From Candidatus Nealsonbacteria bacterium (GTDB taxonomy: Bacteria > Patescibacteriota > Minisyncoccia > Minisyncoccales > JANBVM01), in contig CP179889.1 of the NCBI GenBank assembly GCA_047456315.1, positions 512,776-576,775 on the forward strand: a DNA stretch of 64,000 nt. Reading direction: 5' to 3'. Of the stretch, positions 10,451 to 44,056 are shown piece after piece. Every line of letters starts with the position of its first letter. Within the stretch, counting starts at the first letter, position 1. A program made the position numbers and the translations under genes. Under the pieces are notes generated by a model. The model ran no database searches and was not told where the DNA came from. It worked only from the letters and a program-made list of their open reading frames with translations.

Positions 10451-12613
10451 ATGAAATATTTTATTCTTACCTATGGCTGCCAGATGAATATTTCTGATTC
10501 TGAAAGAATCGCCTCTCTTTTAGAGAATCTCGGCTATCAACCGGCTTTGATTAAAAATAAAGCTGATTTAATAGTGGTTAACATGTGTTCAGTAAGACAA
10601 TCTGCTGTAGATAGAATTTATGGAGCTGGTATAAAATTCCAAAAACTAAAGAAAAAAAACAAGAAACTAAAAACAATTTTAACAGGTTGCATTTCTAAAA
10701 AAGACCATAAAAAACTTATTAAAATATTCGATCTGGTTTTAAATATTAAAAGCTTAAACCAATGGCCGAAATATCTTGAAGCTGGGTTTTCGTCAAAACT
10801 ATGGCCCACTTTACTCCGTCAAACCAGTGAATATTTCAATGTACAGCCCAAACACACAAGCAAGTTTTCAGCTCTAATCCCAATATCTATTGGCTGTAAT
10901 AACTCCTGCGCTTATTGTATTGTTCCTTTTACTCGCGGGCCTTTAATTTGCAGAAGTCATAAAGAAATAATAAAAGAGGTTAAAAAAGCAGTTAAAAATA
11001 GTGCAAAAGAAATATGGCTTTTAGGACAAAACGTTAATGATTATAAATCCCCTATTAATTCTAAAGTAAATTTCGCAAAGCTTTTAAAAATGGTTAATAA
11101 TATTGATGGTGATTTTTGGATAAGATTTACATCTCCAAATCCAAAAGATTTCTCAGATAAATTAATTAACACAATAACCAAATTAGAAAAAGTCACAGAA
11201 TACCTTAACCTGCCAGTTCAGTCTGGGGATAATAAAATTTTAAAAAAAATGAATCGGACTTATACAATTAAAAATTACAAAAATTTAGTTGAGAAAATAA
11301 GGAAAGGAATCCCAGGCATTAGTTTATCAACTGATGTTATTGTTGGTTTTCCAACTGAAACAAAAAAGCAATTCCAAAATACAGCTAAATTATTTAAAGA
11401 AATGAAGTTTGATATGGCATATATTGCTAAGTATTCTCCCCGCCCCCACACAAAAGCCAGCAACTTAAAAGATAATATTTCTAAAAAAGAAAAGAAAAAC
11501 AGATGGATTGCTTTAACAAAAATTCTTGAAAAAACTGCTTTAGAAAACAATAAAAAATATATTGGGAAAGAGGTTAAAGTATTGATAGATGAATATAAGA
11601 AAGGATTCTTGTTTGGAAAAACTAGAACCTATAAAACAGTGAAAATTCCAGCAGTTGATAAAAATTTAGTTGGAAAAATTACGAATGTAAAAATCACTGA
11701 TGCTTTAAGCTGGGGACTGAAAGGAGTTTTAATTAAACCAAAACTAATTGTGATTTTAGGACCTACTGCAGCTGGTAAAACAGGTTTAGCTGTCAAATTA
11801 GCAAGACAATTCAATGGTGAAATTATTTCAGCTGACTCAAGACAAATCTACAAAGAAATGGCTATTGGTACTGCCAAGCCAACGAAAAAAGAAACAAAAG
11901 CTGTCCCCCACCACCTTATTGATTTTGTTTCTCTGAGTAAAGATTTTAATGTTGCAATATATAAAAACAAAGCGTTAAAAGTTATTGAAAAAATATATAA
12001 AAAAGGAAAGGTTCCGTTCCTGGTGGGCGGAACAGGACTATATATTAAAGCAATTGTTGATAATATTGACTTTCCAAAAGTAAAACCTAATAAAAAATTA
12101 AGGGAGCAGTTGGAAAAAAAGAGCACTGGAGAATTATTCAAAATCTATAAAAAACTAGATCCTCAAGGCGCTAAATTAATTGATAAAAACAATAAAAGAA
12201 GATTGGTAAGAGCAATTGAGGTCTCAAAATTAACAGGAAAACCATTCTGGGATCAAAGAAAAAAACAAATCCCTCTTTTTGAAGTTTTGCAAATCGGAAT
12301 AAAACTACCAAAAAAAGAATTAAAAAAGAGAATCTCAAAAAGAACTGATAAAATGTTTAAACTTGGACTTGAAAAAGAACTGAAAAAATTAAAGAAAAAA
12401 TATGTAAAATCACCCTTGCTTCAAACCATTGGCTATGCTGAATGGTTTCAGTATACGGATAAGGAAAAAATAAAAGAAGCTATTAAACTTCATACTCTTC
12501 AATTTGCCAAGCGCCAGATGACCTGGTTTAAAAAAGACAAAAAAATACTTTGGATTAAAAACTATTCCCAAGCTAAATCTCTAATCAAAAGCTTCCTTAA
12601 TAAAAAACTATAG
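10451..12613 (+). CDS. miaB-miaA: Fusion protein: MiaB (tRNA i6A37 methylthiotransferase) + MiaA (tRNA dimethylallyltransferase)
   Basis: Residues 1-428 are MiaB: YGCQMNISDSE, radical-SAM CNNSCAYCIVP, TRAM-like end KITNVKITDALSWGLKG. Residues 429-720 are MiaA: LIVILGPTAAGKTGLAVKLA..EIISADSRQIYKEMAIGTAKP. One uninterrupted frame. Confidence 0.85.
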   Translation: MKYFILTYGCQMNISDSERIASLLENLGYQPALIKNKADLIVVNMCSVRQSAVDRIYGAGIKFQKLKKKNKKLKTILTGCISKKDHKKLIKIFDLVLNIKSLNQWPKYLEAGFSSKLWPTLLRQTSEYFNVQPKHTSKFSALIPISIGCNNSCAYCIVPFTRGPLICRSHKEIIKEVKKAVKNSAKEIWLLGQNVNDYKSPINSKVNFAKLLKMVNNIDGDFWIRFTSPNPKDFSDKLINTITKLEKVTEYLNLPVQSGDNKILKKMNRTYTIKNYKNLVEKIRKGIPGISLSTDVIVGFPTETKKQFQNTAKLFKEMKFDMAYIAKYSPRPHTKASNLKDNISKKEKKNRWIALTKILEKTALENNKKYIGKEVKVLIDEYKKGFLFGKTRTYKTVKIPAVDKNLVGKITNVKITDALSWGLKGVLIKPKLIVILGPTAAGKTGLAVKLARQFNGEIISADSRQIYKEMAIGTAKPTKKETKAVPHHLIDFVSLSKDFNVAIYKNKALKVIEKIYKKGKVPFLVGGTGLYIKAIVDNIDFPKVKPNKKLREQLEKKSTGELFKIYKKLDPQGAKLIDKNNKRRLVRAIEVSKLTGKPFWDQRKKQIPLFEVLQIGIKLPKKELKKRISKRTDKMFKLGLEKELKKLKKKYVKSPLLQTIGYAEWFQYTDKEKIKEAIKLHTLQFAKRQMTWFKKDKKILWIKNYSQAKSLIKSFLNKKL

Positions 12614-22179: not shown

Positions 22180-25100
22180 TTAAACATCAAGATTCTTTAC
22201 CTGTTTAGCATAAGACTGAATGAATTTCTTTCTTGGCAGAACCTCTTTGCCCATTAAAATATCAAATATCCTGTCTGCTTCTCTTTCATCATCAATATTA
22301 ACCTGAAGCAAGGTTCTATTTTCTGGATCCATGGTAGTATCCCAAAGCTCTCCAGCATTCATTTCTCCTAAACCTTTATACCTTTGAATAGAAATATTTG
22401 TGTTTTTCCCAAAGGACTTTATTATCTCCTTGCTCTGACTTTCAGTATAAGCATAATCTATTTTTTTACCAGCCTGGATTTTATATAAAGGCGGCTGGGC
22501 AAGATATAAGTATCCTCTTTCAATTAAAGGTTTAAAGTAACGGTAGAACAAAGTCAAGAGCAGTGTTTTAATATGATTACCATCTGAATTATGCAATAAA
22601 GTTCCGCCAAGACCAGCTACAAAGTTTTGGTCTCCGCAGACTGAAAAATCATAAACAAAATTATCAGGATTTTTAACTTTCTCAATATTTCTGACCTTAA
22701 GACCAATAAAATCTTGAGAGATTGGCTGTAAATATTTACCAATTAGTTTTTTGTAATTTACTTTTTTAAGGTACTCTTTTAACTTCAAACTATCCTTATG
22801 ATTCAACCAGACATTTTTAGTCTCAACCAAATATTCAACAGTAGACACTGACAAATCATAAGACTTAAAGTTAGAACGGATAAGTTTTCCATCTTTCCTA
22901 AAATGATTTTTAGATCGAGACACACTATATGCTGGAAATATTCCCCACTGCCTAAAAATAGTCATTATACCCTGAATAAGTTTTTCAGAAGACAGTCTCC
23001 AGCCATAAATAGCTTTTCTTGGCTTGTCTTTTGGCCAAACTGTAATAAAACCATCACTATGAAGCAAACCTTCAATTAAAGATTCTTGAACTGACTTTTC
23101 TACATTAAAAAAGGTATTAGGAATAAACTTTTCATTACATTTCTTTTTCAAAAGACCTAACTGAGTTAAAAGCAACTTAAATTCAAGAGAATGAAAATGC
23201 AGGTCAATGCTATTAGTATTTTTAGCATAATCTAAAATAGCTTTGGCTCCAAATTTCTTTTCAATAATTTGAGAAAGCTTTTTAATATACTGTTCTGAAT
23301 TTTCCTTATTTAAAGAAATTGAAAATCTGTTTGGATTTTTTTTCTGAAAAGCAGCATAACCATCACCTAAATAAAACCCGATTAAATAACTCAAATCTTT
23401 ACCCAGTTTAAACTTAGTTTTAATAAGCCTAGAATGATTTCTGTAATAGAATTGAACTTCTTCAGCGCTCTTTCCTTTCCAGCTCTTTATTGGAATATAA
23501 AGATTATAATCCAAACCCTTGGAATTTATTTCTATTTGGCTTAAATACTGCTTAAACTGATGAAATCTAGGCATTACATTATCGATCTTCTGTTCCCACT
23601 GCTGAACAACTCTATCATAAACTTTAATCAATTCTCCCATCACTCGTCTGGATATTCCAGTCAACTCTCTTTTTTTCTGAAGTTGATTCCAAGAACCAGA
23701 ATTTAAATCACACCAAGCCATTGCTGGCACTTGTTCTATACGATTCTGAGGAACTTTGACAGAAATATTCTCGAGACCAGAATTTAAAATAGCGTCTTCC
23801 AAATCCATAACATATTCTTTTTCTTGATGAGGAAGCTTTTTAGGAAAAACTAAAATATCTCCTTTTTTAACTTTATCTCCTTTTTTAGTAACAACCTTTC
23901 CATTTTCAAAAACATAAATACTATGGCAAGAAGTTATTTTAATAGGATAACCACAATAAGTCTTGATTTCATATAAAGGAGTACGACGAGGATGACGAAT
24001 AGTCTGATATATATCTTTTAAATCTGATTTCTTATTCTTGGAGTTATATGTTAAAACCTGATATTTTAAAGCATCATCACAATTTTCAATAAATTCCCCA
24101 ACTTCAGTTAAGAAAAACTCCTGTTTTTCTTTATTATAAATAAGAATTGGAGTATCACCAGTTACACTATCAGCATCACACATTATAACAATCCTGTGAT
24201 ATCTGGCTTTTTCAATATCAAAGTCATCAGAAACTGCAGTTCCTAATGCAATAATCAATGACTTAATTTCTTTAGAATTTAATATCTTATCAAGACGAGC
24301 TCTTTCAACATTCAAAATCTTACCACGCAAAGGTAATATAGCCTGAAAATGACGATCCCTGGCCTGACGACTTGAACCTCCGGCTGATTCTCCTTCGACA
24401 ATAAATATCTCTGATTCTTCTGGATTTCTGGAAGTACAATCTGCAAGTTTACCAGGCAGCGCCAAACCATCTAATATCTTTTTTCTTAAAATAGTATCTT
24501 TAGCAGCTTTAGCGGCTTTTCTTGCTTTCTGAGCTAAAGCAAATTTCAGAATAATTGCCCTGGCATCATTTGGATTTCTTTCCAAAAAATCAGCTAAAGC
24601 AACGCTTACAACTTGCTCAACTATTGGCTTGGCTTCAGAATTACCCAGTTTTGATTTTGTCTGGCCTTCAAACTGAGGATCTTTTACCTTAATTGAGATT
24701 ACTGCTGTTAAACCTTCTCTTGTATCTTCTCCAGTAAAGTTGCTATCAGTTTCTTTTAAGAATCCATTCTTTTTTGCGTAGTCATTAAAGGTTCTTGTTA
24801 GGGCAGACCTGAACCCAGTTAAGTGAGTGCCGCCTTCCTGAGTATGAACATTATTAGCAAAAGTTTTTTCAACACATTCAAGATCATCAGTATAGCGAAA
24901 AGCTGACTCAACCAAGATTCCATTCTTTTCTCCCGAACAATAAAAGATGGTTTGGTTAACAGGTGGAGATGTTCTGATTAGGTATTTAATATAAGAAATT
25001 ATTCCTCCTTCAAAATAAACAGCATAAGTTTTATGAGGCTTAACTCTTTGGTCAAAAAAAGTAATCCTTACTCCTTTTGTTAAATAAGCTTGCTGACGAA

Positions 25101-25719
25101 GGTAATTAAGTATTTTCTTTTCATTGAATTTTAATGTGTTAAAAATCTGCTCATCAGGTTCAAAGGTAATAATTGTTCCAGTGGTTCTAGATTTACCCAC
25201 TTTTCTGACCGCTGTTTTTTTCTTGCCCCGGGCATATTCCTGAGAATATCTGTAACCATCCCTGCAAACTTCTACTTTCATGTATTTAGATAAAGCACAA
25301 ACAACTGAGATACCAACACCATGAAGTCCCCCGCTGGTAACATAAGCTTTTCCTCCAAACTTACCTCCAGCATGAAGGGTTGTCATTATTGTTTCCAAAG
25401 CTGATTTTTTTGTTAAGGCATGTCTGTCAACAGGAATTCCTCTTCCATTATCTTCAACCTTAACTCTGTTATTGGGCAAAAGCCAAACTTTAATATCATC
25501 ACAATAACCCATTATCGCCTCATCAATACTATTTCCAACAATTTCTTTTATTAAATGATGCAAACCATCAGGACCTGTTGAACCAATATACATTGCTGGT
25601 CTTTTTCTGACTGGCTCCAATCCCTTCAATACAAAAATATCCTTAGCAGTGTAAGTTGATTTAGTTTTTTTAACTCTTTTTGCTCTAGCTTTTACTTTCT
25701 TTTTAGTTTTTTTAGCCAT
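22180..25719 (-). CDS. gyrB: DNA gyrase subunit B interrupted by an in-frame intein
   Basis: GHKL ATPase (EIVGNSIDEA, NGRGIP, GGLHGVG) and TOPRIM EGESAGGS. The extein junction ..IVIMCDAD | SDGNHIKTLLLTLFYR restores the DxDxDG motif. The ORF track starts at 25749; MAKKTKKK at 25719 is the more likely start. Confidence 0.92.
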   Translation of the reverse strand: MAKKTKKKVKARAKRVKKTKSTYTAKDIFVLKGLEPVRKRPAMYIGSTGPDGLHHLIKEIVGNSIDEAIMGYCDDIKVWLLPNNRVKVEDNGRGIPVDRHALTKKSALETIMTTLHAGGKFGGKAYVTSGGLHGVGISVVCALSKYMKVEVCRDGYRYSQEYARGKKKTAVRKVGKSRTTGTIITFEPDEQIFNTLKFNEKKILNYLRQQAYLTKGVRITFFDQRVKPHKTYAVYFEGGIISYIKYLIRTSPPVNQTIFYCSGEKNGILVESAFRYTDDLECVEKTFANNVHTQEGGTHLTGFRSALTRTFNDYAKKNGFLKETDSNFTGEDTREGLTAVISIKVKDPQFEGQTKSKLGNSEAKPIVEQVVSVALADFLERNPNDARAIILKFALAQKARKAAKAAKDTILRKKILDGLALPGKLADCTSRNPEESEIFIVEGESAGGSSRQARDRHFQAILPLRGKILNVERARLDKILNSKEIKSLIIALGTAVSDDFDIEKARYHRIVIMCDADSVTGDTPILIYNKEKQEFFLTEVGEFIENCDDALKYQVLTYNSKNKKSDLKDIYQTIRHPRRTPLYEIKTYCGYPIKITSCHSIYVFENGKVVTKKGDKVKKGDILVFPKKLPHQEKEYVMDLEDAILNSGLENISVKVPQNRIEQVPAMAWCDLNSGSWNQLQKKRELTGISRRVMGELIKVYDRVVQQWEQKIDNVMPRFHQFKQYLSQIEINSKGLDYNLYIPIKSWKGKSAEEVQFYYRNHSRLIKTKFKLGKDLSYLIGFYLGDGYAAFQKKNPNRFSISLNKENSEQYIKKLSQIIEKKFGAKAILDYAKNTNSIDLHFHSLEFKLLLTQLGLLKKKCNEKFIPNTFFNVEKSVQESLIEGLLHSDGFITVWPKDKPRKAIYGWRLSSEKLIQGIMTIFRQWGIFPAYSVSRSKNHFRKDGKLIRSNFKSYDLSVSTVEYLVETKNVWLNHKDSLKLKEYLKKVNYKKLIGKYLQPISQDFIGLKVRNIEKVKNPDNFVYDFSVCGDQNFVAGLGGTLLHNSDGNHIKTLLLTLFYRYFKPLIERGYLYLAQPPLYKIQAGKKIDYAYTESQSKEIIKSFGKNTNISIQRYKGLGEMNAGELWDTTMDPENRTLLQVNIDDEREADRIFDILMGKEVLPRKKFIQSYAKQVKNLDV
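22588..24168 (-). mobile_element. Intein (527 aa) with LAGLIDADG homing-endonuclease domain inside gyrB
   Basis: Starts SVTGDTPILIY (Ser1, AGT at 24168-24166). Block B is TSCHS. LAGLIDADG motifs are LIGFYLGDGYA and LIEGLLHSDGF. Ends VYDFSV..NFVAGLGGTLLHN followed by Ser (+1, TCA at 22587-22585). Confidence 0.85.
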
Positions 25720-41363: not shown

Positions 41364-41885
41364 TTATCTCTTCTTCCACTGCGGCGCTCTTCTGGCACGT
41401 TTTAAACCAGGCTTCTTTCTTTCTCTCATTCTTGAATCACGTTTCAAAAATCCAGCCTTTTTTAATCTTTTTCTAAAATCTGGATTAAAGAGAAGCAGGG
41501 CTCTAGCTGTGCCATGACGAACTGCCTCAGCCTGGGCATTCAATCCCCCTCCCCTGATAACAACAGAAATATTAAACTTATCAAGACACTTCATTTTTTC
41601 CAAAGATGCTAAAGCAGTTTTCTGAAGTTCAAAAGTTGGAAAATATTTTTTAAAAGGTTTTTTATTAATTGAAAAACCATTTTCTCCTTTTGTGAAAATT
41701 CTAATTCTGGCTACCGCTCTTTTTCTCCTTCCAACTGCTTCAATATATCTATCTGATTCAACTGCCTTCTCTTTCTTAACTTCTTTGGCTGCTTTTTCTG
41801 GCTTTTCTATCTTCTTCTTCTTTTCCTTGGTTTTTTTAACAGCTTTTGTTTTCTTTTTAGTTTTTGTTGTTTTGGCTTTAGGCAT
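41364..41885 (-). CDS. rpsI: 30S ribosomal protein S9 with Lys-rich N-terminal extension
   Basis: 173 aa; GRRKRAVARIR...GGG..AQAEAVRHGTARAL...RDSRMRERKKPG..KARRAPQWKKR. Confidence 0.95.
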   Translation of the reverse strand: MPKAKTTKTKKKTKAVKKTKEKKKKIEKPEKAAKEVKKEKAVESDRYIEAVGRRKRAVARIRIFTKGENGFSINKKPFKKYFPTFELQKTALASLEKMKCLDKFNISVVIRGGGLNAQAEAVRHGTARALLLFNPDFRKRLKKAGFLKRDSRMRERKKPGLKRARRAPQWKKR

Positions 41886-42249: not shown

Positions 42250-42600
42250 TTATTTAACTAATTCTATTATTGCTATTTTTGCTCCATCTGATCTTCTGGG
42301 CGCAAGCTTAATAATTCTTGTGTAACCGCCTTTTCTTTTTTTGTACCTTGGAGCAATCTCATCAGTTATCTTTTTTACTACATCTTTTGAGAAATTTCTA
42401 GCCAGCATCCTTCTAGCGCTAATTGTCCCGATCTTTCCTTTGGTAATTTGTTTTTGGGCAAAAACTGAAACCTCCTTAGCTTTAGCTAAGGTGGTCTGTA
42501 TCTTTTCTCTTAAAAAAAGTTCTCTGGCTAAAGACCTTAAAAGAGCTTTTCTCTGATTACTCTTTCTTTTAAGTTTTCTTCCTTTTTTTCTTTTTCTCAT
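42250..42600 (-). CDS. rplQ: 50S ribosomal protein L17
   Basis: MRKRKKGRKLKRKSNQRKALLRSLA...GGYTRI. The ORF track extends to 42624; the ATG at 42600 matches the L17 consensus start. Confidence 0.93.
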   Translation of the reverse strand: MRKRKKGRKLKRKSNQRKALLRSLARELFLREKIQTTLAKAKEVSVFAQKQITKGKIGTISARRMLARNFSKDVVKKITDEIAPRYKKRKGGYTRIIKLAPRRSDGAKIAIIELVK

Positions 42601-43351
42601 CTTCCTTTTTTTCTTTTTTAACAAGCTTTTTCTTTTTTACTTCCTTTGTTTCTTTTTTAACAGGCTTTTTTACCAGACCCTGGAAAAACAAATCAAAATG
42701 CTTTAGTAAAATATCTGAGGCCTTGGAAAATGCATCCTCTGGAGACATTATTCCATCAGTTTCTATTTCTAAAAACAATCTGTCGAAATCTGTTCTCTCA
42801 CCCACTCTCATATTTTCTGTTTTAATAGCAATTCTTTTAATAGGAGTAAATATTGCATCTAGGGTAATAACTCCAATTTCCTGCTTTTCCTTTTTTCTTG
42901 ATTCTCTTGGCACATAACCCAGTCCTTTTTCAACTTGAATTTCCATTTCCAAGCTTGCCTTGTTTTCTGTTAAAGTTGCAATATGGCAATCTTTATTAAC
43001 TAGCTCCAGCTGACTGGGCAGCTTGAAATCAGAACCCTTTATTTCTTTTTCACCCTTAACTTTCAAAATAGCTTTCTGGGGCTCGTCAGATAAAATCTTG
43101 AACCTCATCTGTTTTAAATTAAGCATAATATTGACAACGTCTTCCAAAACACCAGGGATTGTTGAAAACTCATGAGAAACATTCTTTATCTTCATCTGGG
43201 TAACTGCGGCTCCGCCTAAAGAAGAAAGAAGCACTCTTCGTAAAGCATTGCCAATCGTTACTCCATAGCCAGGATAAAGAGCCTCTATTTCAAATATGGC
43301 TTTGTTCTTTTGTTTTTTAATAATTTTTGGTTTAAGAGGCAGCGGGATCAT
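42569..43351 (-). CDS. rpoA: RNA polymerase alpha subunit, N-terminal domain only, with a Lys-rich tail in place of the alpha-CTD
   Basis: 260 aa; GYGVTIGNALRRVLLSSLGGAAV. The NTD ends near residue 224 (LLKHFDLFFQ), followed by a 36-aa tail GLVKKPVKKETKEVKKKKLVKKEKKEDEKKKKRKKT. Confidence 0.92.
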   Translation of the reverse strand: MIPLPLKPKIIKKQKNKAIFEIEALYPGYGVTIGNALRRVLLSSLGGAAVTQMKIKNVSHEFSTIPGVLEDVVNIMLNLKQMRFKILSDEPQKAILKVKGEKEIKGSDFKLPSQLELVNKDCHIATLTENKASLEMEIQVEKGLGYVPRESRKKEKQEIGVITLDAIFTPIKRIAIKTENMRVGERTDFDRLFLEIETDGIMSPEDAFSKASDILLKHFDLFFQGLVKKPVKKETKEVKKKKLVKKEKKEDEKKKKRKKT

Positions 43352-43423: not shown

Positions 43424-44056
43424 TTAACGTGAATAAAACTCAAATATTGATAATATGTCTACTGGGGGAGCCACTTCCTCTAGGGTGGGCTCACCAATTA
43501 TTTCTGCTTCTAATTTATCCTTGTTCAATTTTAACCAACTGGGAGTTTTATGCTTTTTCATTAATTGCTTGAATTCTTTGATAATATTTTTCTTTAATTT
43601 CTGCTCTTTCACAGAAAGAACATCTCCTTTTTTAAGCTGGCAGGAAGGAATATTTATTGCTTTTCCATTAACCTTAAAAAATCCATGTGAAACTATAGTT
43701 CTTGCTTTTCTTCTTGACAGGGTAAAACCTAATCTAAAAACTATATTATCTAATCTAGATTCTAAATTTTTAATCAAAAGCAAAGGAGCATCTTCCATCT
43801 TCCCTTTTTTTGTCAAAAGCTTTTTCACATAATTCTTAAATTGCTTCTCTGATAAATTATACCAGTTTTTAAGCTTCTGTTTTTCCCTTAACTCTTTGGC
43901 ATACTCAGAAGGACGACTCTTCCTTCGTTTCCCTTTCTGACCAGGAGGATAAGGCCTTCTTACCATTGAGCACTTTGGTGAAAAGCAACGCTCACCTTTT
44001 AAAAAAAGTTTCTCTCCTGCCCGTCTACAAATTTTACAAATTGATTGTTTTACCAT
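43424..44056 (-). CDS. rpsD: 30S ribosomal protein S4 (zinc-finger form)
   Basis: 210 aa; CKICRR..C..PKC N-terminus, RLDNIVFRLGF, and an S4 domain. Confidence 0.95.
   Translation of the reverse strand: MVKQSICKICRRAGEKLFLKGERCFSPKCSMVRRPYPPGQKGKRRKSRPSEYAKELREKQKLKNWYNLSEKQFKNYVKKLLTKKGKMEDAPLLLIKNLESRLDNIVFRLGFTLSRRKARTIVSHGFFKVNGKAINIPSCQLKKGDVLSVKEQKLKKNIIKEFKQLMKKHKTPSWLKLNKDKLEAEIIGEPTLEEVAPPVDILSIFEFYSR

Follow-up and report, generated by a model that had tools for sequence, protein, structure and literature searches.

An RNA polymerase alpha subunit of Candidatus Nealsonbacteria without its C-terminal domain and with a lysine-rich tail as a putative DNA tether

The 64-kb stretch of a Candidatus Nealsonbacteria genome analysed here (contig CP179889.1; hereafter the window) encodes an RNA polymerase alpha subunit, RpoA, that has no C-terminal domain (alpha-CTD). 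We show that the lineage deleted this domain from its rpoA gene and kept the N-terminal domain (alpha-NTD), the part that nucleates assembly of the enzyme, and that a disordered polycationic tail of about 35 amino acids (aa) remains. To our knowledge the alpha-CTD is usually regarded as universal in bacteria. A textbook part of the bacterial transcription machinery, it reads UP elements, is where class I activators and many of class II dock, and makes RNA polymerase associate with DNA much faster. Biochemistry in E. coli has established that assembly and basal transcription need no CTD, while UP-element reading and class I activation do. Since the domain is absent from RpoA, canonical UP-element and class I activator contacts are impossible for this protein, a consequence that an earlier sequence-only reading of the window had drawn and that the true absence of the CTD from rpoA supports. 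On balance we lean towards a minimal RNA polymerase that makes neither kind of contact and whose basic tail is a putative non-specific DNA tether.

The rpoA gene and its product

The 260-aa product of rpoA matches PF01000 (residues 54-169, E=1.3e-32) and PF01193 (residues 26-219, E=1.1e-20). AlphaFold2, run on a 50-sequence alignment, folds residues 9-226 with a predicted local distance difference test (pLDDT) score of 65-88. The NTD, with its PF01193 and PF01000 domains, is intact over residues 9-226 or thereabouts, and the length of 260 aa and the NTD boundary near residue 224 given by the sequence-only reading agree with both analyses. Two NCBIfam equivalog models score above their cut-offs (TIGR02027, 258.6 against 227.8; NF003519, 282 against 277) with an alignment limited to model positions ~2-246 of ~300-320, and six other NCBIfam subfamily models score below their own cut-offs. 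Sixty PDB alpha chains match the protein (best E=2.6e-56), and they do so over the NTD and linker only.

No match to PF03118, the Pfam model of the alpha-CTD, was found in the 260-aa protein even at E<=1, and a hidden Markov model (HMM) that we built from 96 CTD sequences had no match in it either. The absence of the domain, as first read from the letters, therefore stands. As a positive control, E. coli RpoA was submitted to the same Pfam tool and returned PF03118 at E=3e-24. The end of the NTD and the start of rplQ are separated by only ~80 nucleotides (nt), so that there is no room for a CTD of ~65 aa. The conserved start of rplQ, MRKRKKGRKL, corresponds to the ATG at 42600 and the two genes overlap by 32 nt, which confirms that rpoA runs into rplQ and leaves no space for a missed piece. 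The gene lies between rpsD and rplQ in the canonical operon order infA-rpsM-rpsK-rpsD-rpoA-rplQ-rplM-rpsI (Pfam), laid out as follows.

42569..43351, minus strand: rpoA coding sequence, CTD-less RNA polymerase alpha subunit, 260 aa (open reading frame (ORF) with ATG start; Pfam, NCBIfam)
42680..43351, minus strand: alpha-NTD, dimerisation and beta/beta' assembly platform, codons 1-224 (Pfam, PDB alignments, AlphaFold2)
42572..42679, minus strand: Lys-rich tail, predicted to be disordered, in place of linker and alpha-CTD, codons 225-260 (composition, pLDDT)
42569..42600, minus strand: 32-nt overlap, in two frames, of the rpoA 3' end (…EDEKKKKRKKT and stop) and the rplQ 5' end (MRKRKKGRKLK…) (sequence)
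42250..42600, minus strand: rplQ, ribosomal protein L17, immediately 3' of rpoA and overlapping it (PF01196, E=1.6e-30)
43424..44056, minus strand: rpsD, ribosomal protein S4, upstream neighbour of rpoA (Pfam)

The window RpoA is a genuine, single-piece bacterial RpoA of Candidatus Nealsonbacteria (Patescibacteria, or Candidate Phyla Radiation, CPR). To judge from the conservation of its NTD, it would assemble as alpha2 with beta and beta'.

Residues 225-260 (nt 42572-42679) read GLVKKPVKKETKEVKKKKLVKKEKKEDEKKKKRKKT, exactly as transcribed earlier; 19 of these 36 residues are K and 1 is R, and the net charge is +14 (20 K/R, 6 D/E). Given 12.9 % Lys across the 69 predicted proteins of the window, the probability of at least 19 K in such a tail is 1e-8, and the tail is also the densest 30-aa stretch of K/R among these proteins (18 of 30). 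Residues 231-260 receive an AlphaFold2 pLDDT of 40-48; disorder and a high net positive charge, both features of a polycationic tail, are thus present. The coding DNA of the tail is 61 % A, compared to 36 % in the NTD-coding part, and contains A7 runs. We defined an AT-hook by a G-R-P core, usually RGRP, with K/R flanks, and no GRP core was found in the window tail.

Comparable Lys-rich extensions outside the Pfam domain are seen on three ribosomal proteins of the window: N-terminal on S9 (41364-41885, minus strand, ~51 aa) and L23 (62531-62965, minus strand, ~56 aa), C-terminal on L22 (60878-61396, minus strand, ~65 aa).

CTD-less alpha subunits in Patescibacteria

To place the window protein we compiled its 120 best database relatives (69-100 % identity, 227-316 aa), here called the window family. 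They were drawn from NCBI, JGI, ENA and Logan, and some lie on contigs of 636-695 kb. A protein named RpoA in a Candidatus Nealsonbacteria metagenome-assembled genome is 100 % identical to the window RpoA, and a homologue on a 675,639-bp contig is 99 % identical to it. All 120 relatives carry PF01000 and PF01193 only, with no PF03118 in the precomputed Pfam annotation, and our CTD HMM gave 0 matches among them. The loss of the CTD from rpoA is thus lineage-wide and not peculiar to the window genome. The tails of the family are 3-63 aa long (median 35) with a median K+R fraction of 0.45, and their net charge (median +11, minimum +1) is positive in 120 of 120. A terminal motif resembling (D/H)(E/A)KKKK(R/G)KK(T/A) closes 76 of the 120 tails; elsewhere sequence conservation is weak, and a single member (P0065) has a GRP core.

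We then asked how far the trait extends. We searched 1.84 billion cluster representatives exhaustively with HMMER and examined the best 150 matches, which comprise 96 proteins with a CTD, about 40 plausible CTD-less proteins with tails of 20-65 aa and about a dozen junk sequences resembling frameshifts. The latter (P0137, P0217, P0224 and others), long and seemingly CTD-less, have Arg- or Ala-rich tails, are likely frameshifted high-GC genes and were kept out of the statistics. Three further proteins, P0122 (569 aa), P0126 (526 aa) and P0241 (664 aa), have two alpha-NTD stretches or long N-terminal additions and may be tandem duplications, fusions or mis-assemblies.

A scan of GTDB species genomes with the full-length alignment gave the best 80 Patescibacteria loci, of which 74 have a normal CTD inside rpoA and 6 are CTD-less, none of the six with a CTD within +/-4 kb; the ranking by similarity to a full-length query favours CTD-bearing genes and these counts are not frequencies. 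CTD-bearing loci include Kaiser-, Nomura-, Zambryski-, Taylor-, Ryan-, Azam-, Moran- and Gribaldobacteria and "Paceibacterota". The notion that CTD loss is general to Parcubacteria or CPR is therefore rejected: much of Parcubacteria has kept the CTD, and its loss is clade-specific. The comparison across bacteria that the sequence-only reading had suggested accordingly upholds a trait of the clade and does not extend it to CPR as a whole, where most sampled Patescibacteria keep the CTD. Many Parcubacteria-like loci among L004-L083 are titled "uncultured Candidatus Saccharibacteria" or "Bdellovibrionales" (binchicken or third-party assemblies, TPA); these labels look unreliable and were kept out of taxonomic conclusions.

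A second CTD-less family emerged from a search with the protein P0164. It returned 120 proteins (P0289-P0407, 241-318 aa) whose sources name Falkowbacteria and "Patescibacteria group", and 0 of the 120 have a CTD (PF03118). Their tails consist of an acidic, variable spacer of 30-60 aa followed, in 108 of 120, by the canonical AT-hook KKRGRPKK at the extreme C-terminus. The RpoA of a Veblenbacteria locus (L082, 4001-4786) with 55 % GC also ends in KKRGRPKK and lies upstream of rplQ without overlap. Because of this GC content and because the motif is outside any rplQ overlap, base composition and dual coding cannot explain the AT-hook. The RGRP motif was found in 0 of 166 linkers of CTD-bearing proteins.

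This second family resembles the window RpoA in having an alpha-NTD, a flexible stretch, a short basic C-terminal element, no PF03118 and the same operon position. It differs in that identity is about 45 %, that it stands apart in the tree described below and that it combines an acidic spacer with a conserved AT-hook, whereas the window RpoA has a diffuse poly-Lys tail without GRP core. The minor groove of AT-rich DNA is bound by AT-hooks and, at UP elements, by the alpha-CTD as well. In architecture, a flexible spacer and a small DNA-binding element attached to the alpha-NTD amount to a miniature alpha-CTD. The AT-hook of the second family makes a DNA-tether role for the basic ends of CTD-less alphas considerably more credible, and for the poly-Lys tail of the window this function would hold by analogy.

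A neighbour-joining (NJ) tree of the NTDs (206 columns, 100 bootstrap replicates), which carries moderate support only, places the window family in one coherent CTD-less clade whose nearest neighbours (P0123, P0124, L004 and L005) are CTD-bearing, and the second family in a separate clade. The two CTD-less families group exclusively in 0 of 100 replicates, and 74 of 100 unite the window family with the CTD-bearing P0123 and leave the second family out. Because of these two results at least two independent losses are indicated, with moderate support in this NTD tree. We regard it as quite possible, if a little short of probable, that the alpha-CTD has been dropped at least twice in Patescibacteria and that each time a minimal, flexible element tethering the alpha-NTD to DNA took its place: in the Nealsonbacteria type a diffuse tail of poly-lysine, in the Falkowbacteria/Veblenbacteria type a conserved AT-hook on an acidic spacer. 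If true, RNA polymerase kept a way to catch AT-rich DNA quickly, through the minor groove or electrostatically, and gave up activator docking, and this convergent "mini alpha-CTD" defines a stripped-down form of bacterial promoter recognition.

What the loss and the tail may mean

From what is known of E. coli, the RNA polymerase of this lineage would not read UP elements through an alpha-CTD, nor would it be recruited by class I-type activators docking on that domain; without these contacts, promoter use would rest on sigma-DNA contacts. A weaker step concerns the tail. The alpha dimer has two of these flexible basic ends, which may tether DNA electrostatically and without sequence specificity, close to the promoter or upstream of it; such a tether would partly replace the fly-casting role of tethered alpha-CTDs. 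A physical rationale comes from a preprint reporting that removal of both alpha-CTDs slows the association of RNA polymerase with DNA ~55-fold and proposing that any small flexible DNA-binding tether can accelerate association (bioRxiv 10.64898/2026.07.21.739884).

The suggestion of the sequence-only reading that the tail may touch DNA gains from the contrast between tails of net charge +11 and linkers of -3 and from the parallel AT-hook clade, and it loses from the tails of 4 aa in L071 and 11 aa in P0118. Several observations weigh against a tether. Tail sequence and length (3-63 aa) are poorly conserved. The tail is nearly absent in L071 (4 aa, with an ATGA stop/start overlap), P0036 (3 aa) and P0118 (11 aa), and must therefore be dispensable at least in some lineages. 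The terminal motif, which is the conserved part, is accounted for by dual coding with rplQ. Lys-rich extensions are general in this genome of 33 % GC among proteins that bind nucleic acids, as on S9, L22, L23 and the N-terminus of GyrB. The window tail has no AT-hook core, and its contact with DNA is argued from comparison. Two further points are the negative scan for a stand-alone alpha-CTD, which spans 64 kb of a ~650-kb genome, and the DNA upstream of the best promoter-like sites, where the 25 nt before the five best sites are 57 % AT compared to 67 % in the window (n=5, a tiny sample).

Promoters had been brought in as an argument by the sequence-only reading, which described very regular -35/-10 elements. 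This does not hold up: promoter-like sites in the 38-48 kb part number 34, compared to 31 +/- 5.7 in shuffles, and sigma70-like sites with at least 11 of 12 matches occur only five times in 64 kb. With counts at chance level and n=5, we set aside promoter regularity and upstream composition as uninformative on UP elements. Two perfect TTGACA-N16/18-TATAAT sites were seen, at 47204-47177 and 29944 (both minus strand), whose upstream 25 nt are 40-48 % AT against the mean of 67 % and have no UP-like A/T tract.

The main rival accepts the CTD loss as real but gives the tail no function: the tail would be what is left of a basic linker, extended by read-through into the A-rich start of rplQ. Near tail-less relatives, weak conservation and the genome-wide Lys-rich habit give this rival its rank. 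AT pressure yields Lys-rich low-complexity ends throughout the genome, S9, L22 and L23 included, the tail DNA is 61 % A, and tail length goes down from 63 aa to 3 aa, with some clade members near zero. Dual coding explains a part of the tail directly. Its last ~10 residues (DEKKKKRKKT) correspond to the initiation codon and first nine codons of rplQ in the other frame, and the rplQ N-terminus is conserved in the relatives L071 and L072. These residues are fixed by the overlapping rplQ start and their conservation therefore needs no tail function; the same applies to the motif that closes 76 of the 120 tails.

The overlap does not, however, explain the whole tail, since it covers 10 of 36 residues. 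In two CTD-less relatives, L072 and L077 (36 % and 25 % GC), rpoA does not overlap rplQ and K/R still make up 18 of 45 and 15 of 35 tail residues, which suggests that K-richness is independent of the overlap.

The linker side of this rival is likewise only partly true. In the 74 CTD-bearing Patescibacteria loci the linkers are typically acidic (median K+R 0.15, D+E 0.25, net charge -3) and 3 of 74 are net positive, so the tail is not simply a retained linker of the usual kind. The nearest CTD-bearing relatives, though, already have basic linkers, with 9 K/R against 2 D/E in P0123 and 21 against 3 in P0124. The tail probably descends from an interdomain linker that was already basic. The simplest history would be that the CTD-coding segment was deleted and the basic linker kept, a deletion that would have brought the rpoA stop into rplQ.

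A relative shows another route: in L002 (1-560) and L003 (3-170) a CTD (an ORF of 55-62 aa with weak PF03118 similarity) lies off-frame from the rpoA NTD, just upstream of rplQ. In L002 the NTD frame, apparently after a 1-nt indel at an A-run, reads into the basic end KRNQKRLLLN, so that a single frame change in the linker instantly yields such an end. The off-frame CTD of L002 could reflect a split gene, a pseudogene intermediate or faulty assembly.

Against a mere by-product stand the positive net charge in 120 of 120 family tails (minimum +1, median +11), compared to 3 of 74 CTD-bearing linkers, the K-rich tails of L072 and L077, and the separate CTD-less clade, where this position holds a conserved DNA-binding motif (108 of 120), also in a genome of 55 % GC. 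We consider the functionless tail possible but rather doubtful.

It is conceivable that the alpha-CTD is encoded separately elsewhere in the genome and supplied in trans. Free-standing alpha-CTD genes exist in some bacteria, as seen from a 98-aa stand-alone PF03118 protein (L001, 1820-2116) in a non-ribosomal context on an unrelated high-GC metagenome contig of 2.6 kb, and L002 and L003 place their CTD ORF in another frame between the rpoA NTD and rplQ. Our six-frame scan with the CTD HMM covered the 64-kb window, ~10 % of the genome, and found no alpha-CTD in any frame (best E=0.71); within that range the stand-alone gene that the sequence-only reading had named as a possible refutation is absent. 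The six other CTD-less genomes agree, with no CTD in the +/-4 kb around rpoA. A five-sequence Patescibacteria CTD profile, searched against 5.8 billion proteins, gave three short matches (leading to L001 and L002/L003), none from Nealsonbacteria, in a low-yield search of low sensitivity with only 388 candidates. An untethered CTD could, moreover, hardly recruit RNA polymerase in the known way. Taken together, we find a split gene very unlikely.

We give about as little weight, or slightly less, to another ligand, namely that the tail binds RNA or a different partner such as the nascent transcript, the ribosome in transcription-translation coupling or a nucleoid or condensate. Polylysine binds any polyanion, and the similar extensions on S9, L22 and L23 presumably have rRNA as their ligand. 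In solved RNA polymerase structures, however, the alpha C-terminus faces upstream DNA, and the AT-hook that the parallel clade carries is specific for the minor groove of DNA.

The chance that a sequencing or assembly frameshift or deletion merely cut short a normal rpoA is practically nil: the A7 runs of the tail are indel-prone and L002 has a probable 1-nt indel between its NTD and CTD frames, but no CTD-coding sequence lies downstream in any frame, rplQ fills that DNA from 80 nt past the NTD end, and all 120 homologues, drawn from independent NCBI, JGI, ENA and Logan assemblies, share one architecture, which excludes the hidden frameshift or longer ORF near 42680 that had earlier been named as a way to overturn the finding.

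Whole clades of a very large bacterial radiation live without a CTD on their alpha subunit and are predicted to have a regulatory repertoire without alpha-CTD-dependent activation. The poly-Lys and AT-hook tails would be natural minimal-tether variants with which the physical contribution of a tethered DNA-binding module can be probed. Annotators should not flag rpoA genes of Patescibacteria as truncated or partial because they are short (~240-290 aa).

Elsewhere in the window, GyrB (22180-25719, minus strand, 1179 aa) has, besides its Lys-rich N-terminus, an intein (PF14890, about residues 539-1044) after the Toprim domain. A single ORF of 720 aa (10451-12613, plus strand) fuses a MiaB-like methylthiotransferase (UPF0004, Radical_SAM and TRAM) to MiaA (isopentenyl diphosphate (IPP) transferase), which joins two consecutive tRNA A37 modification steps in one polypeptide.

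Comparison with known systems

CTD-less alpha subunits have been documented in Hodgkinia and Tremblaya and cited for Euglena chloroplasts, and one sentence of the same paper states that alpha-CTD loss likewise occurs in Parcubacteria (PMC8321222). The main text of the work cited there for Parcubacteria does not mention RNA polymerase (Nelson & Stegen 2015, PMC4508563). Besides that one sentence, we found in the open-access literature no co-mention of alpha-CTD and Patescibacteria or CPR, and likewise no account of alpha tails that are Lys-rich or carry an AT-hook; a perspective on Patescibacteria from 2024 mentions neither RNA polymerase nor sigma factors or promoters. The loss of the CTD in some Parcubacteria has thus been remarked on before, in a single passing mention. 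Apparently new are the recurrent, clade-specific character of the loss, the systematic replacement by a basic C-terminal element (poly-Lys or AT-hook) and the partial dual coding with rplQ.

Canonical RpoA (E. coli, B. subtilis, Thermus; PDB 6wvj_A, 1iw7_A) is homologous to the window protein over the full NTD, occupies the same operon position and belongs with it above the equivalog cut-offs. It differs in having a helix-hairpin-helix alpha-CTD (PF03118) of ~65-85 aa with the 261, 265 and 287 determinants, and in its length of ~310-330 aa compared to 260.

The alphas of extremely reduced endosymbionts and of plastids keep the alpha-NTD alone (PMC8321222), and the window RpoA, from a reduced genome too, resembles them in that the CTD is absent from the gene and from the 64 kb scanned. 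It is distinct from these in belonging to Patescibacteria with genomes of ~0.65 Mb, in a loss that is clade-specific and recurrent, and in the basic tail or AT-hook that stands in place of the domain.

Archaeal RpoD and eukaryotic Rpb3 are also assembly-platform subunits without alpha-CTD, but the window RpoA is clearly of the bacterial type, and the RpoD model NF001988 scores 25.7 bits (E=7.8e-6) against a cut-off of 153. A parallel to the proposed basic tether is offered by the actinobacterial WhiB proteins, RNA polymerase-bound factors with a C-terminal AT-hook DNA-binding motif (PMC6954389). The principle, DNA contact through a short basic motif that RNA polymerase carries, would be shared; WhiB, however, is a separate, sigma-bound Fe-S protein that coexists with a normal alpha-CTD, whereas in the CTD-less alphas the basic element is part of the alpha subunit itself.

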